A stretch of 64,000 bases of DNA from Alphaproteobacteria bacterium (GTDB lineage: Bacteria > Pseudomonadota > Alphaproteobacteria > Rs-D84), in assembly GCA_024402765.1 (NCBI GenBank), contig JAKSTC010000001.1, positions 3,170 through 67,169 on the forward strand, given 5' to 3'. Under the pieces are notes generated by a model. That model was not told where the DNA came from. It saw nothing but the letters and a program-made list of their open reading frames with translations, and searched no databases. Every line of letters starts with the position of its first letter. The first letter of the stretch is position 1. This document shows positions 1 through 8,048 of the stretch, in pieces. A program made the position numbers and the translations under genes.

Positions 1-676
1 TAATATACACACTCGCCACGATTGGCATCTCTTTGACTTTCGGTGTTTCTTTTTGAACAATAGATGCGAGTGTTAAAACATCGTTCCAATTTTTTAATGG
101 CGATGGCAAATGTTTGACCGAAACTTTTTCCTGTATACCAATCATTTTTTTTCGCGCCAAATCTAAAACTGCCAAACGCGAAGTTCCACGTGCGACACGA
201 TATGTATCAGGGAAAATATCACCATCATGCAAATTACAAACTGGTGCAGTGTTTGTTTTTTCACATTCTATATTTCCTGACAATTCTGGCATTTGTTGTA
301 ATAATTTTTTTGTTTGTATTATTGTCATACCCTCTGGTATTAAAACTGTTGTTGTTGCGATATCACCGGTTGCCAACATTTTAGCAATGCGCCATGGGCT
401 TGCCCTGTGTGGAATATCATATGCACCCGCCTGAACACGATTACCATTTAACCACACAGCCATTTTAAACGAAGAGACGGAATCGAAAACACCTGCATCA
501 TGTAGGTCGTTTGCGACACTGCCCACCGACGCACCTGGTAATACATTATACGAAAAAGTCCGATGCGATGAAAAGATATACCCCCCACCCCACACCAAGA
601 AAACCAATACAATCAGTGCCAACAAAATCAGCGCTTTGAAATATTTTTTTACTAATCTTTTTAATCTTCGCGACAT
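1..676 (-). CDS. mltG: Endolytic murein transglycosylase MltG/YceG family, N-terminal part (C-terminus lies beyond the window start)
   Basis: Minus-strand ATG at 674-676. Own translation MSRRLKRLVKKYFKALILLALIVLVFLVW... shows an N-terminal TM segment followed by YceG-like motifs (FPDTYR, LASIVQKET, VASV). Not in the ORF track because it runs off the window edge. Confidence 0.75.
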   Translation of the reverse strand, partial: MSRRLKRLVKKYFKALILLALIVLVFLVWGGGYIFSSHRTFSYNVLPGASVGSVANDLHDAGVFDSVSSFKMAVWLNGNRVQAGAYDIPHRASPWRIAKMLATGDIATTTVLIPEGMTIIQTKKLLQQMPELSGNIECEKTNTAPVCNLHDGDIFPDTYRVARGTSRLAVLDLARKKMIGIQEKVSVKHLPSPLKNWNDVLTLASIVQKETPKVKEMPIVASVYI

Positions 677-773: not shown

Positions 774-1559
774 ATGTCGCACACAATAACACTTAATGGA
801 AAAATTATACAAGACATCCGTCACAACATAGGATATCCATCACATGAAAAATCAAAATACGAACGCGAAAGAGTAAGGTTTTCACACTGTCTATTTTTAA
901 CCCAGGATAAAAATATTTTGACTTATCAAACTGCAACCCCTTATACAATTGTGCGTATTTCTGAACCGACAGATATAAAAATTCCATATCCTTTGGCAAT
1001 AAATCTGGAACCTGTTCTTATTGAAAACTCTCCATCTATAAATTTAGAAATTCCTGATTGCACCTTTGCAACACTGCAAACATTTAATAACACCGACCGC
1101 CCAGAATACATAAAAACAAATGACTTGAAAACAAATGTTGTTATGTTGGGAAATTACAAAACAAATCTGGAATATCTGAACGATATGCAAGAGAAAACAA
1201 ATTACATGAATTATTTAATGAATTGCAAAATTGACTATGATACAAAAGACAACGCAAAACAATACGATTGGGACAAAGTACACCTATGCAATTTAGCCGA
1301 CACATTGCACCTGGATTATACAAAACCATATTATATTAAATACCCTCTTTCACAACAAACAGAACTTGATAAATATGCTATGTCCAAAATATTACAACAG
1401 GTTTCTAAATTCGGATATTTGTATCGCACTGTGCACGATGAAGATTACGCAGAAAAAACATTAAAGATTCCCGTTGCTATATTTGCAAAAAACATTTGTT
1501 TGCGACAAATGACAGCATTAATAATTGGTCGCATAAAACAAAACGAACATACAAAATAA
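774..1559 (+). CDS. Hypothetical protein (261 aa), no recognisable domain
   Basis: Long ORF with no signal peptide, followed by a hairpin terminator. No family recognised. Confidence 0.4.
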   Translation: MSHTITLNGKIIQDIRHNIGYPSHEKSKYERERVRFSHCLFLTQDKNILTYQTATPYTIVRISEPTDIKIPYPLAINLEPVLIENSPSINLEIPDCTFATLQTFNNTDRPEYIKTNDLKTNVVMLGNYKTNLEYLNDMQEKTNYMNYLMNCKIDYDTKDNAKQYDWDKVHLCNLADTLHLDYTKPYYIKYPLSQQTELDKYAMSKILQQVSKFGYLYRTVHDEDYAEKTLKIPVAIFAKNICLRQMTALIIGRIKQNEHTK

Positions 1560-1561
1560 AA

Positions 1562-1588
1562 AAACGCCATAACGGCGTTTTTTTAATA
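1562..1588. terminator. Bidirectional rho-independent terminator (aacgcc-ataac-ggcgtt plus T-run)
   Basis: GC stem-loop flanked by an A-run and a T-run, lying between convergent genes. Confidence 0.6.
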
Positions 1589-2038
1589 TCTTTTTTTATT
1601 TTTAGATTTATACCACTTTTGCATTACATCAACCGCAGATGGCATTTCAATATGTGTCATCTTTATTGGGCATTTGCCATTAAACATTCGTGCATCACGA
1701 AAGCCAATTTTATCTGCATCATATTGATCGGCGGCAAAGAAAACCTTTTTTATATTTGACCATTTTATCGCCGCATTACACATTGGACATGGTTCACACG
1801 ATGTATATAAAACACAACCCGATAAATCAAAGGTTCCTAACTTTTTACACGCGCGCCGAATCGCATTTACCTCTGCATGTGCGGTTGAATCATTTGACGA
1901 AACAACCGTATTATATGCGCGCGCAATTACAATTCCATCCTTTACAACGACCGCACCAAATGGTGACGACCCCTGCGCCACAGATTTCGCACTTTCATTC
2001 ACCGCCATTTGCAAAAATTTTATATCATCTTGTTTCAT
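1583..2038 (-). CDS. CMP/dCMP-type zinc deaminase (TadA / guanine deaminase family)
   Basis: HAEVNAI...CEPCPMC zinc-binding motifs. Start taken at the internal MKQDDIKFLQ, because the N-terminal 29 aa of the listed ORF overlap a hairpin repeat and look spurious. Confidence 0.65.
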   Translation of the reverse strand: MKQDDIKFLQMAVNESAKSVAQGSSPFGAVVVKDGIVIARAYNTVVSSNDSTAHAEVNAIRRACKKLGTFDLSGCVLYTSCEPCPMCNAAIKWSNIKKVFFAADQYDADKIGFRDARMFNGKCPIKMTHIEMPSAVDVMQKWYKSKNKKRY

Positions 2039-2085
2039 TTTTTCCCTCACACTTTTCAGGACAATTATATCATAAAAAAGACAAA

Positions 2086-2125
2086 AATAAAACCGGCATA
2101 AATGCCGGCTTAATTTTTTTTCCAA
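2086..2125. repeat. Hairpin repeat copy 1: caaaaataaaaccggcataaaTgccggc plus T-run
   Basis: Near-identical ~30-nt copy at 2283-2317. Stem ccggcat/atgccgg. Confidence 0.5.
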
Positions 2126-2317: not shown

Positions 2318-2394
<77 letters not shown>

Positions 2395-2440: not shown

Positions 2441-3703
2441 TTATTTTTCGCGGTTAAATACACGTTTAAATATAATAGATGCGTTAGTTCCACCAAAACC
2501 AAATGAATTACTTAACACAACATCAACCTTACGTTTTTTTGCCTTGTGTGGAACCAAATCAAAATTACCAACTTCATCAATTGGGTCATCCAAATTGATT
2601 GTTGGTGGAACAATGTTATCACATATTGCCAATATACTAAATATTGCTTCTATCGCACCGGCAGCCCCCAACAAATGTCCCGTCATAGATTTTGTTGATG
2701 ACATACATGCGCCTGTTTTTCCAAACATTTTTTTGACTGCAACCATTTCACCAACGTCACCCAAACCTGTGGACGTTCCATGTGCATTTATATAATCAAC
2801 ATCCGCTGGTTTCAACTTTGCGCTTTTTAATGCGGCCGCCATCGCACGCGCACCACCAACACCATTTGGTGCCGGTGCGGTTATATGATACGCATCCGCG
2901 GACAGGCCGTAACCTGCAACCTCTGCATATATTTTTGCACCACGTTTAACAGCATGTTCATATTCTTCAAGGACCAAGATACCCGCCCCCTCACTCAACA
3001 CAAACCCATCCCTGTTTTTATCCCATGGGCGCGAAGCATGCACCGGGTCATCATTACGCGTTGATAATGCACGCATCGCAGCAAAGCCCGCAAGTCCAAC
3101 CGGGACAACCGCCCCCTCTGTTCCGCCACAAACCATAATATCGGCTTCACGATTCTTGATAAATTGTGCTGCTTCTGCAATAGAATGACTACCCGTTGCA
3201 CACGCTGTCGCCACAGAAATATTTGGACCCTGCAAACCATATTTAATAGATGTATAACCTGCTGTCATATTCACAATCGCCTTGGTTACAAAAAATGGGC
3301 TCACAAAACGTGGACCATTTTTATCCAATTCCAGTGCAATATCACTTATAGAGCCCAATCCGCCAACCCCACTGCCGATTGAAACACCAATACGCCGTTT
3401 ATCACCATCATAATCAATTAAGTTTGCATCACGCATTGCTTCATCAACCGCAACCAAACCATAGATTATTGACTTATCCATTTTTCTTTGTTCACGCGGG
3501 TCAATCACCAAATCCGGATTAAAATCACCATCCTTGTCGCCACGCACAGGCACACCTGCAATTTGTGAAGCAAAGTTAGATGCGTCAAACAAATCAATTT
3601 TACGAATTCCAGATTTACCAGAAATAATATTTTTCCATGCATATTCAACACCCGTTCCCACAGGCGAAACAATTCCCATACCGGTTACTACAACCCTTCT
3701 CAT
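2441..3703 (-). CDS. fabF: 3-oxoacyl-ACP synthase II
   Basis: 420 aa with a typical KAS-II N-terminus (MRRVVVTGMGIVSPVG), an active-site Cys region, and C-terminal GHLLGAAGAIEA / SNSFGFGGTNA. Confidence 0.9.
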   Translation of the reverse strand: MRRVVVTGMGIVSPVGTGVEYAWKNIISGKSGIRKIDLFDASNFASQIAGVPVRGDKDGDFNPDLVIDPREQRKMDKSIIYGLVAVDEAMRDANLIDYDGDKRRIGVSIGSGVGGLGSISDIALELDKNGPRFVSPFFVTKAIVNMTAGYTSIKYGLQGPNISVATACATGSHSIAEAAQFIKNREADIMVCGGTEGAVVPVGLAGFAAMRALSTRNDDPVHASRPWDKNRDGFVLSEGAGILVLEEYEHAVKRGAKIYAEVAGYGLSADAYHITAPAPNGVGGARAMAAALKSAKLKPADVDYINAHGTSTGLGDVGEMVAVKKMFGKTGACMSSTKSMTGHLLGAAGAIEAIFSILAICDNIVPPTINLDDPIDEVGNFDLVPHKAKKRKVDVVLSNSFGFGGTNASIIFKRVFNREK

Positions 3704-3815
3704 AATAAATCCTTTTTATTAATATTCTGGGTCTATAATACCTTGTTTTACAGAAAAAATACAGAAAAAAATCCGTTGTCAGGTGACAACGGATAAAAAC
3801 TTATACAGAACAAAA

Positions 3816-4049
3816 TTATTTTGTGTGTTCATCAATATATTTAACAGCATCGCCAACAGTTTCTAATTTTGCTGCTTCTTCATCAGGAATCGTAATATTG
3901 AATTGCTTTTCAACTTCCATAACGAATTCAACAACATCCAAAGAATCTGCCCCTAAATCATTTACAAATGCAGCACTTTCAACAATCTTTTCATCTGCAA
4001 CACCCAATTTGTCCGCTACAATTTTCTTTACTTTTTCTAAAGTTGTCAT
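3816..4049 (-). CDS. acpP: Acyl carrier protein
   Basis: 77 aa with the DLGADSLD phosphopantetheine-attachment motif. Confidence 0.92.
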   Translation of the reverse strand: MTTLEKVKKIVADKLGVADEKIVESAAFVNDLGADSLDVVEFVMEVEKQFNITIPDEEAAKLETVGDAVKYIDEHTK

Positions 4050-4188
4050 TTTCTATCCTTTGTTTTGGTTAAACTTTTGCCCCATGATACCAACGGGAGT
4101 CAATATACAACAAAATATCATTTTATAACTATGGTGTCAAGGATTTATAACAAATTATAACAAAAACACACTAAAAACAATATATTAA

Positions 4189-5199
4189 CTAAGCCAGCAA
4201 ACTATCCAATAAATCGTTCATATTGTCCCTAATATCTTCACGATCCGCCGCCCAAACCAACCTACGCATAACAAACTTATGCACATCATCCATTGTTAAA
4301 TTTGGAATATGCGCACGTTTTACAACGCGTGCCCACGCAACACGCGGATCTGCCAAATGATTTTTACAACGACTCACAAAAATCCAATCACTATTTTCCT
4401 GGGGCAAATCTTGCAATAATACAGCAGTTCTATCAGACAACGGCCAATCTTTCCACATATAATGATTAAAATCTAAATCAGCCCAACACATAGAAAAAAT
4501 TTTTGATTTAGGTAAAAAGCTATACACCAACATTAAAAACGCGGCACGCACGATGAGATTTTCCTCCATATTAATTGCGTCAACCAGCGCACGCAAACCA
4601 TATTCTGTCAAAGGAGATGTCCGATATTTTTTTTCAATGCGTTTTAATTGTATCGCAGGATTTTTTTTGACGTATCCCATTTCAACGGCATATTTAAAAA
4701 TACTATTTAATAATTCCTGCATACGACCAGCGATTGTTTGTCCTTCTATATTTGCAATAACACTTTCTAAATCATCAACTTTAATTTCATCAACAAATTT
4801 ATCAAACAAATCTTTCAAATGCAGCTCTATAGAACGAACCAATTTAACTTCTGAATCTTCACTGCGACGAACACAGTTTTTAATATACAGGCCAACAAAT
4901 TCTTTAAATTTAATTTTCTTACGCCGCACAGGAACTTTTTTCAATGCGTTTTCCAATAACGCTGGCACCGCAGCACGCGCCATTTCAATATCAACCGTTG
5001 GATAGTTTCCTATGATAATTCGTTTATCATTACCATGCACCCTTTTACGAACAAAGAATGTTTTGACCCCACGTGATGTAACATACATACGCAGACGCGG
5101 TTCTGATAAATCTTGGACAACATCAAACCCCTTTGCTGGTGTGGGCAAATTATCTAAAATATACGAATTAAAGAAAAATTGATGTGCCATTTTATTCAC
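4189..5199 (-). CDS. P4-type integrase-like protein (Arm/DUF4102-like N-terminal domain), catalytic region apparently degenerate
   Basis: N-terminus [43 protein letters not shown] resembles the P4-integrase Arm domain. The C-terminal half has a tyrosine-recombinase-like layout, but no obvious HxxR box II and no terminal catalytic Tyr. The start overlaps the lepA stop by 8 nt. Confidence 0.5.
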
Positions 5200-7033
5200 C
5201 TACTTTTAATGCGTTAATAAATGCGCTTTGTGGAATTTCGACATTACCGAATGTGCGCATACGTTTTTTTCCTTCTTTTTGTTTTTCCAACAGTTTGCGT
5301 TTACGTGTGATATCACCACCATAACATTTTGCAGTAACATCCTTACGATACGCAGCAATCGTTTCACGCGCGATAATTTTTCCACCAATCGCCGCCTGGA
5401 GTGGAATTTTAAACTGGTGCCGTGGAATTAAGTCTTTCAATCTTTCAACAATTTGACGACCGCGCGATTCTGCAACAGATCGATGACAAATAAAAGACAA
5501 CGGTTCAACATTTTCTTCATTAACCAGAATCGAAACCTTTACCAAATCAGACACTTCGTATCCACATACCGAATAATCAAATGATGCATAACCCGAAGAT
5601 ATAGATTTCACCCTGTCGTAAAAATCAAACACAACCTCTGCCAACGGCAGGCGATATGTCAACACTGCGCGATTTCCAACATAGGAAATATTTTCCTGGA
5701 CCCCGCGCCGTTGTGAACACAATTCCATCAAGCCGCCCATATATTTATCAGGCATCATAATTGTTGCGCGCACCCATGGTTCTTCGATTGATTCTATTTT
5801 TGTGGGGTCTGGCATATCTGCAGGATTTTCCAAATCCATCATATCGCCCCCGCGCAGATGAATTTTATACAGCACACTCGGCACCGTATTAATCAGGTTC
5901 AAATTAAATTCGCGGGTCAGGCGTTCGCTAATAATCTCCATATGCAACAAACCCAAAAATCCACAACGCAAACCAAACCCCAATGCCGAAGATTTTTCAG
6001 TTACAAACATAAAAGACGCATCATTCAACGCCAACTTTTCTGCACTTTCGCGCAGGTTTGGATAATCGTCCGCAGACACTGGGAAAAACGAAGAAAACAC
6101 GACCGGCACAGACGGCTTAAAACCCGGTAACGCCGCGCCACCGGATTTAGAATCAACGATTGTGTCCCCAACCTTGCAATCGTGAATTGTTTTCATACCC
6201 GTAATAATAAATCCGATTTCGCCTGTTTCCAAACTATCGACATTAACCATTTTCGGTGTAAAATAGCCAATTTTTTCAACCGTATATTCTGCGCCTGTCG
6301 CAACAAATTTTATTTTTTGTCCGCGCGACAATTTACCATCAACGACACGCACCAAAACAACAACACCCAAATAAGAATCATACCATGAATCAACCAGCAA
6401 CGCGCGTGTTGGCGCATTTTCATCACCATTTGGCGCCGGCAATTTATGAACGATTTCTTCCAACAATTCTGGGACACCTGCGCCGGTTTTTCCCGACACA
6501 GTTAATGCATCGTTTGCATCCAGTCCGATAACATCTGCTATTTGTTCGCGGGTGGCGGCGACATCACTGGACGGCAAATCAATTTTATTCAATACCGGCA
6601 ACATTTCCAAATTATTATCCAACGCCAAATAAGCATTCGCCAGCGTCTGCGCCTGGACCCCCTGGGTTGCATCGACCAAAACAATCGCGCCCTCGCACGC
6701 CGCCAAACTGCGCGACACTTCGTATGAAAAGTCTACATGCCCCGGTGTATCCATCAAATTAAGTTGATATTCTTGCCCATCTTTGGCGCGATAGTTTAAA
6801 CGCACCGTTTGTGCCTTTATCGTAATTCCGCGTTCGCGTTCAATATCCATTGAATCAAGCACCTGGGCCTTCATTTCCCGCGCCTGCAGTCCACCCGTAA
6901 ATTCAATCAACCGGTCTGACAGGGTTGATTTACCATGATCGATATGCGCAACAATAGAAAAATTTCGGATATTTTTTTGATTCACCTTTATACCTTTTGC
7001 GGCAATGATACACCCGTATAAGGCATCACGCAA
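5192..7033 (-). CDS. lepA: Elongation factor 4 (LepA)
   Basis: [18 protein letters not shown]1 motif and full EF4 architecture. The true start may be the GTG 16 codons downstream (VNQKNIRNF). Confidence 0.9.
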
Positions 7034-7041
7034 CCAAAAAA

Positions 7042-7623
7042 TTAAACCATCGCAACGATTCCAATACCGACCAGCGCGGCAAGAATTGCACCAATCGTTA
7101 TTGGCCAGAAATATTTTTTAACAATGTTATTTGCACGTTCTTGAAAAAAATAAAGCAATGTCCCGACAATTGCAAAACGGCCGGTTCTGAAAATAGCAGA
7201 CACAGCAACAAACAAAATTATAGGATAATTCAAAAACCCCAAACAAATGCCGAGCAATTTATAAGGAATTGGTGTAAATGCAGTTGCAACGATAATAAGC
7301 ACACCCCATTTATCAACCAATGCGCGTACCTGTTCCAAATAAGTGATGGCATCCATAGATGCAAATTGTTGAATCAACCACGCGCCCACAGAATCAAACA
7401 ACCACACACCGATTGCGTATGCAATTATACCCCCAACGATTGAACCCAACGCCGCTGCGAGTGTGATAGGCACCGCACGTTTTTTATTTGCGACAATTGC
7501 GGGTGTCATAAACACTTCGGGTGGAATGAACAAGAATACAGATTCAAACACAGTCATCACAAAGACGACCCACCAATACCACCGCGCTTCGGCTTTGGAC
7601 AACAAGTATTCAGACAATTTCAT
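7042..7623 (-). CDS. DedA/YqaA family membrane protein
   Basis: 193 aa, multi-TM, with a DedA-like loop ([11 protein letters not shown]). Confidence 0.6.
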
Positions 7624-7700
7624 TAAATTCCTTTTATAATTTTCTTGATTGTAAAGTAATATCTATTAAATTACAATACAGAAAAACCAAAGGGTAAAAA

Positions 7701-8048
7701 ATGCCAACAAAACCAAGAAATACGAATCGTGGCGAACGCATCGCGTCCAAGGTGCAAACGATAGTATCAGAAATTTTACGGGAAAAATATAGCGAAGATA
7801 AAATCTTATCGGGTGTATCACTGTCAGGTTCCGATTCGCGCGGCGGCTTGCAATTTGTGCGCCTGTATTATTATACGCATACGGGAAAGTCTGACACGAT
7901 TCAGAAAAGGCTTGATGAAGTTACGAAAACGATTCGTTTTGAATTGGCATCGCGTATGGATCAGAAATATGTTCCAGAAATCAAGTTCACATACGATGAC
8001 ACATTGGACCGCGCGAATCGTATTGATGAATTATTGAAAAATTTGTAA
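7701..8048 (+). CDS. rbfA: Ribosome-binding factor A
   Basis: 115 aa with an RbfA-like profile (RIASKVQTIVSEIL...VSLSGSDSRGGLQFVRLYY). Confidence 0.7.
   Translation: MPTKPRNTNRGERIASKVQTIVSEILREKYSEDKILSGVSLSGSDSRGGLQFVRLYYYTHTGKSDTIQKRLDEVTKTIRFELASRMDQKYVPEIKFTYDDTLDRANRIDELLKNL

Follow-up and report, generated by a model that had tools for sequence, protein, structure and literature searches.

This study concerns an integrase-like gene that follows lepA in an Alphaproteobacteria bacterium of the order Rs-D84. It lies within a stretch of 64,000 nucleotides (GCA_024402765.1, contig JAKSTC010000001.1, positions 3,170 to 67,169 of the forward strand) that was analyzed as a whole and is called the window below. 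The minus-strand gene order at the locus is lepA, the integrase-like gene, acpP, fabF, and tRNA-Pro(CGG). Read from a GTG start, the open reading frame (ORF) spans 4189..5199 on the minus strand and encodes 336 amino acids. All homologues (89 copies, comprising the window and 88 further loci) begin with MAHQF[FY]F; therefore, the true start is the ATG at 5190..5188, and the gene occupies 4189..5190 on the minus strand, with a TAG stop at 4191..4189 and a product of 333 residues. Its upstream neighbor, and the most deeply conserved one, is lepA (EF4; 5192..7033, minus strand), whose TAA stop at 5194..5192 leaves a single nucleotide ahead of the ATG. The two genes thus do not overlap, and the 8-nucleotide overlap with the lepA stop given in the original prediction belongs to the upstream in-frame GTG. 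A Shine–Dalgarno sequence, AGGTGA (5196..5201, minus strand), can be read within the last lepA codons, 5 nucleotides ahead of the ATG.

On the other side of the gene, acpP (3816..4049) and fabF (2441..3703) are encoded on the same minus strand, as had been described originally, and a terminator-like hairpin at 3771–3794 follows acpP. The tRNA-Pro(CGG) gene (2318..2394, minus strand) begins 47 nucleotides after fabF and lies approximately 1.8 kb from the integrase-like ORF. It is the nearest tRNA, and a repeat search found no att-like repeats flanking the gene, in agreement with the earlier statement that neither kind of integration landmark is adjacent.

The protein has the domain order of a tyrosine integrase. 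Pfam models matched Arm-DNA-bind_3 at residues 35–84 (27.4 bits; cut-off 27) and Phage_int_M at residues 111–186 (29.1 bits; cut-off 27), while Phage_integrase (PF00589) stayed below its cut-off (15.3 vs 27.1 bits) and was covered only at profile positions 4–121 of 172. The PHROG_1 profile, annotated as integrase, matched residues 14–299 with E = 5.7e-28, so the homology to integrases is far above chance. An AlphaFold2 model built from 27 homologues (mean predicted local distance difference test score, pLDDT, 82.8) was closest to full-length lambda Int (1z1b; Foldseek E = 4e-8) and also resembled Tn1549 Int and XerA. Its N-terminal domain superposed in Foldseek on the arm domains of P4-like HPI integrases (3jtz and 3rmp) with template modeling scores of 0.81–0.83, and the integrase fragments 2kkv and 2kj9 matched the core-binding region in a PDB sequence search. 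Three domains are thus delimited, all encoded on the minus strand: an arm-type DNA-binding domain, the most conserved part of the protein (residues 1–83; 4942..5190); a central, SAM-like helical core-binding domain (residues 95–185; 4636..4908); and a remodeled catalytic-fold domain that lacks an active site (residues 186–333; 4192..4635). The arm-like N-terminus and recombinase-like C-terminal half proposed from the sequence at the outset are therefore borne out by Pfam, PHROG_1, and the fold, and the protein is a true homologue of the three-domain P4/arm-type tyrosine integrases. The proteins of the family are basic, with isoelectric points of 9.3–10.4. NCBIfam holds no model for the family and returned only weak Xer matches (17.2 bits, cut-off 279, and 12.8 bits, cut-off 329.6), and a PADLOC defense-system search with the protein gave no match.

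The catalytic residues were followed in an alignment of the family with its nearest intact integrases (A2) and in column counts over 83 unique family sequences. The nearest full-length intact integrases are 380–450 residues long, carry the motifs TGARRSN, ETKNG, IHDLRRT, and LGHxS..T.IYA, and score 88–98 bits on PF00589 over positions 2–170. In the family, the column of the first catalytic arginine (Arg-I) holds proline in 72 sequences, serine in nine, and threonine in two (P227 in the window protein); in A2, divergent members show N, K, S, or Q there. A 12-column deletion in the same alignment takes out ETKNGxxxxV, the beta2–beta3 hairpin that bears the catalytic lysine. At box II, IHDLRRT of the integrases aligns to MDDV(Y/H)KF: the His-II column is aspartate in all 83 sequences (D301 in the window protein), and the Arg-II column is tyrosine in 52, histidine in 28, and asparagine in three (H304 in the window protein). 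Across A2, the histidine is replaced by D, G, N, S, or T and the arginine by H, Y, or I. A second deletion, of 24 columns, removes LGHxSxxxTxxYA and with it both His-III and the tyrosine nucleophile; an amphipathic helix (residues approximately 317–332) stands in for the missing segment, and no conserved tyrosine occurs after residue 296 in the 83 sequences. Owing to the two deletions, the protein is approximately 55–60 residues shorter than P4-type integrases.

The absence of the box II HxxR and of the C-terminal tyrosine, already remarked in the original prediction, is thus confirmed and extended to Arg-I and the lysine hairpin; the alignment of catalytic residues, proposed there as a check, disclosed no intact hexad, and the active site is gone entirely. 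With Arg-I, the Lys hairpin, His-II, Arg-II, His-III, and the tyrosine all lost, the protein is predicted to be incapable of DNA cleavage and rejoining. Members that are only 33–47% identical to the window protein have these substitutions and deletions in common with it, which points to one ancient inactivation event.

Loss of the active site has not been accompanied by decay of the gene. All 89 copies are intact ORFs of 332–346 residues. In the closest pairs (synonymous divergence, dS, of 0.16–0.9), the ratio of nonsynonymous to synonymous substitution (dN/dS; Nei–Gojobori, NG86) was 0.04–0.10 for the integrase-like gene and 0.03–0.07 for fabF on the same contigs. Pooled by domain, dN/dS was 0.069 for the arm domain, 0.118 for the core-binding domain, and 0.071 for the catalytic fold, which places all three under purifying selection; the catalytically dead domain is therefore constrained as much as the arm domain. 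Invariant columns number 40 of 83 in the arm domain and 32 of 148 in the catalytic fold. Pairwise protein distances correlate with the corresponding fabF distances (Spearman 0.86; 2,775 pairs), so the gene has been inherited vertically.

When one genome per GTDB species was scanned, 253 of these species-level genomes encoded a relative. The best 80 of these 253 are metagenome-assembled genomes (MAGs) assigned to Candidatus Enterousia or to 'Alphaproteobacteria bacterium' and derived from the rumen, gut, or feces. Every flanked locus among the 88 keeps the order lepA, gap, integrase-like gene, acpP, and fabF, with a gap behind lepA of about 0–1.7 kb in the relatives (17 to 1,663 nucleotides). 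Divergent members (P0121, P0123, P0125, P0280, and P0368; 33–47% identical) retain the same order, and a 'Rickettsiales bacterium' clade retains only the link to lepA. The lepA–acpP synteny is thus kept across the order Rs-D84; this comparison and that of conservation and dN/dS in relatives had likewise been put forward with the original prediction, and both speak for a maintained gene. One distant member is not next to lepA; it has an acyl-ACP thioesterase gene on one side and recR on the other. This protein, P0128 (353 residues, 35% identity), is the most divergent of all; its locus (L095:2580-5033, with recR–ksgA on the far side) is another, independent case of a family member beside an acyl-ACP gene.

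Enterousia, a member of the uncultured order Rs-D84, has genomes of approximately 0.75–1.0 Mb that lack the tricarboxylic acid cycle and respiration (PMC12306168). Retention of the gene in genomes of this size argues for a needed function. When 1.84 billion representative proteins, clustered at 50% identity, were searched with a profile, the family comprised about six full-length clusters (327–353 residues; 269–417 bits), and the next full-length proteins were intact integrases, which scored at most 178 bits and matched the profile only up to approximately position 304. No family members were found in IMG/VR, among the INPHARED phages, or among the PLSDB plasmids, where only intact integrases of 21–28% identity occur.

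Relatives carry zero to four small cysteine-rich ORFs (approximately 105–170 residues), in tandem and on the same strand, between lepA and the integrase-like gene, for instance at L001:7234-7988, L006:7637-7981, and L090:6201-7040 and in most of L009–L088. A single BLAST cluster holds 84 of the 101 gap ORFs, with the consensus ...CENFDDEKKCPNTECPYYKKN... and K/E-rich helices on either side. These ORFs gave no Pfam match and have no homologue in the 64-kb window, so they are not required partners of the integrase-like gene.

How the gene is expressed was read from the features around it. Neither the junction of lepA with the integrase-like gene nor the sequence directly after the latter contains a terminator-like site. 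The acpP gene has a promoter of its own (4112..4140, minus strand), consisting of a -35 TTGACA, a 17-nucleotide spacer, and an extended -10 TGnTATTTT, which is kept across 81 unique intergenic sequences and is also present in distant lineages. The integrase-like protein is most likely made from the lepA transcript, given the lack of a terminator between the two genes, the separate promoter of acpP, and the terminator-like hairpin behind acpP. Of the co-transcription with neighboring genes that was originally suggested, the part concerning lepA is thus favored by the 1-nucleotide gap and the missing terminator; the part concerning acpP–fabF is less clear given the conserved acpP promoter, and transcription into these genes would be read-through at best.

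Just upstream of the acpP -35 lies a tandem direct repeat, TTTGTTAT-NN-TTTGTTAT (4147..4164, minus strand), in 10-bp phase. In terms of the shorter motif TTTGTYA, two or three repeats occur at an exact 10-bp phase at 4147–4164; of 81 unique sequences, 57 keep the one at offset -24 and 72 the one at offset -14. The repeats are still recognizable in lineages whose proteins are only 42–47% identical. The 64-kb window has no other exact match to the tandem, and TTTGTTAT alone is not enriched there (15 matches vs 11.3 expected). The tandem is either a candidate operator, composed of arm-type-like sites, or an UP or extended -10 promoter element.

The region as a whole, i.e., the acpP upstream sequence and 5' leader (4105–4190), is deeply conserved non-coding DNA that contains phased TTTGTYA, TTGACA, and TGnTAKTTT, and the leader reads ...GAC.CCCG...GGG.CA..TTTAAC..AAAGGA. 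The same tandem, in the form TGTTATAAT-TYGTTAT, recurs in a sub-clade, where 12 of 43 loci have it 64–230 nucleotides downstream of yceG and on the strand opposite to that gene (L019, L031, L041, L052, L054, L056, L063, L064, L069, L077, L082, and L085). Apart from the tRNA, Rfam found no RNA element, and it gave no match in the three loci with the yceG tandem that were scanned (L041, L063, and L069).

Several known systems share parts of this picture. The P4-type integrases (HPI/CP4-like, IntS/IntB) have the same order of Arm-DNA-bind_3 followed by Phage_int_M. Unlike them, the integrase-like gene has lost its active site, is single-copy, is syntenic behind lepA, and sits at no island edge, and their patchy horizontal distribution is not seen in a family whose locus is syntenic and whose distances track those of fabF. 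XerC and XerD are, like the integrase-like gene, chromosomal and vertically inherited members of the tyrosine-recombinase family, but they are active enzymes that lack an arm domain.

Tyrosine-recombinase folds that work without recombination have been described from mobile elements. MrpR/YopR and SroF, master repressors of SPbeta-like phages, have such a fold, have lost recombinase activity, and repress as sequence-specific DNA-binding proteins (PMC10516654; preprint 10.1101/2025.11.27.690993). These proteins offer the best functional analogy to the integrase-like protein. However, they are phage-encoded and lack the arm-type N-terminal domain, and MrpR keeps the tyrosine and the lysine, unlike the protein described here. 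TnsF is an inactivated target selector with a tyrosine-recombinase fold from Tn6022-like Tn7 transposons (PMC10293859). It is transposon-encoded, carries zinc fingers and tandem core-binding-like domains, acts with TnsABC, and targets comM, whereas no transposon genes lie near the integrase-like gene. Neither the PDB sequence matches (E up to 10) nor the top 50 fold matches listed included an MrpR chain, and similarity to TnsF was likewise undetected within the same two sets. The resemblance to MrpR and TnsF is thus one of analogy and not of common family. Source annotations name the members only 'integrase family protein' or 'hypothetical protein', and a literature search found no published description of the family, giving only analogues encoded by mobile elements. 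The family appears to represent an inactivated integrase fold exapted as a host core gene, whereas its analogues MrpR/SroF and TnsF serve mobile elements.

The gene is probably best explained as a vertically inherited, non-catalytic descendant of a P4/arm-type integrase that acts as a DNA-binding architectural or regulatory factor and forms part of the core gene set of Rs-D84 and its relatives. The protein has lost all catalytic residues and kept the three-domain architecture; its DNA-reading arm and core-binding modules would still recognize specific sites and might also bridge or bend them. The result would be a non-enzymatic architectural factor or a transcriptional regulator, translated from the lepA transcript, with the phased TTTGTTAT repeats ahead of the acpP promoter as one candidate target. 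The domesticated, catalytically dead integrase that the original prediction had entertained is strongly supported by the lost residues, the intact ORFs, dN/dS, vertical inheritance, and synteny; its recruitment for DNA binding is plausible, and a DNA-binding, architectural, or regulatory role is inferred by analogy with MrpR/YopR and TnsF, with indirect support from the conserved arm domain and the basic isoelectric point.

Several points weigh against this interpretation. The DNA binding and the target sites are themselves predicted. The catalytic-fold domain of the Enterousia proteins is close to neutral (net charge -1 to +1), unlike that of intact integrases, and may now serve contacts with proteins rather than with DNA. 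The 33 intergenic segments of the window yielded no recurring motif, k-mer enrichment giving only A/T runs. The sequence TGTTATAAT is at the same time a perfect extended -10, so that reading the repeats as a promoter or UP element is equally possible, and some distant lineages retain only one copy of the candidate operator. In addition, the link to acpP is not universal, and all host genomes are metagenome-assembled. The more specific proposal, in which the protein is a lineage-specific core factor whose arm-type domain reads the TTTGTTAT repeats upstream of the acpP -35 and which controls the genes for acyl carrier protein and fatty-acid synthesis, is put forward as rather unlikely. If true, it would mean that an arm-site/integrase pair has turned into an operator/regulator pair, in bacteria that lack most conventional regulators.

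Two further explanations take the protein to be folded and retained for another purpose. It may be a non-catalytic partner subunit that selects targets for, loads, or regulates a recombinase or transposase, or one that works with XerC/D or with an element that uses the nearby tRNA-Pro. A model is provided by TnsF, a target selector that resembles a tyrosine recombinase but is inactivated (PMC10293859), and tyrosine recombinases function as oligomers. Relatives repeatedly have tRNA-Pro(CGG) downstream of fabF, with neither its distance nor its orientation constant, and one clade (L089) has an Xer-like gene in the vicinity of lepA. Yet no transposase or recombinase gene is consistently linked to the integrase-like gene, neither the window nor the other loci contain an Xer-like gene, and the family is strictly vertical and missing from the mobile-element collections, all of which makes such a partnership unlikely. 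A role apart from DNA, as an RNA-, ribosome-, or protein-binding scaffold of the rbfA–lepA operon, would fit the deepest conserved link, which is to lepA with rbfA often upstream, as well as the apparent coupling of translation to lepA and the near-neutral catalytic-fold domain in Enterousia. It has to be set against an arm-type DNA-binding domain that is the most conserved of the three, with nearly half of its columns invariant, and against the often incidental nature of operon membership in reduced genomes. To our knowledge, there is no precedent for an arm or core-binding domain that binds ribosomes. We regard this role, too, as improbable.

The remaining alternatives deny either that the gene is maintained or that the enzyme is dead. 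A recombinase that is still active, ordinary or non-canonical, with catalytic residues missed by the alignment, would account for the preserved fold and could draw on the tyrosine in the Arg-II-equivalent column of 52 of the 83 sequences. That tyrosine alternates with histidine and asparagine, however, and the His-III/Tyr segment and the lysine hairpin are absent. The match to PF00589 remains at 15.3 bits and ends at profile position 121 of 172, and the stop codon is followed by approximately 139 nucleotides of conserved promoter, which leave no room for a downstream exon. The alignment with intact integrases (A2) and the column counts thus rule out missed residues, and activity is very improbable. 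The decaying remnant or pseudogene of an island once situated between lepA and acpP, which the original prediction had also considered, would explain the truncated C-terminus, the lost catalytic residues, and the tRNA-Pro gene some 1.8 kb away. It is refuted by 89 intact copies of fixed length, dN/dS values on a par with fabF and equally low in the dead domain, deletions common to lineages that are 33–47% identical, vertical inheritance, and synteny; moreover, no att-like repeats flank the gene, and it is kept in genomes below 1 Mb. The probability left to this explanation is next to negligible.

Such a descendant would be a full host exaptation, a single-copy derivative of a P4-type integrase under purifying selection that has become fixed next to lepA. 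It is found throughout an order of gut Alphaproteobacteria whose genomes measure approximately 0.75–1 Mb and tend to shed dispensable genes, and the evolutionary case is clean, with more than 1,000 sequences behind it. As a natural experiment, the family can also show what arm-binding, core-binding, and catalytic-fold domains are capable of in the absence of catalysis. In practical terms, more than 1,000 such proteins, which pipelines label 'integrase family protein', inflate the mobile-element calls in these MAGs.

Other features of the window and of the related loci were observed alongside. The rbfA gene and a VTT-domain gene form a pair upstream of lepA (7042–8048 in the window), and some lineages have this pair inverted with respect to lepA. 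Comparing the window with L001, L004, and L009 shows that the VTT gene of the window and of L009 has the orientation of lepA and that their rbfA is divergent; in most loci, it is rbfA that has the orientation of lepA.

The tRNA-Pro(CGG) gene is found downstream of fabF in most relatives (L004, L006, L009, L011, L014, L015, L031, L036, L041, L045, and others), at a distance from fabF of approximately 50 nucleotides to more than 3 kb and in both orientations, which suggests repeated rearrangement or insertion there. A terminator-like hairpin of 37 nucleotides (AAAACCGGC...GCCGGTTT) occurs in two copies, at 2082–2118 and 2282–2318, which are 200 nucleotides apart and 92% identical; no other notable repeat turned up near the gene. 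The copy at 2282–2318 abuts the 3' end of tRNA-Pro(CGG), and the pair was considered as a classic att repeat and rejected, as the 3' end of the tRNA is not duplicated. The copy at 2082–2118 lies just upstream of a gene of the cytidine/dCMP-deaminase family (1583–2125, minus strand). A 261-residue ORF (774–1559, plus strand) that has no Pfam match occupies a patch of low GC content (approximately 0.32 vs 0.38 for the window) between the deaminase gene and yceG, which is partial at the left edge of the window (2–550, minus strand).

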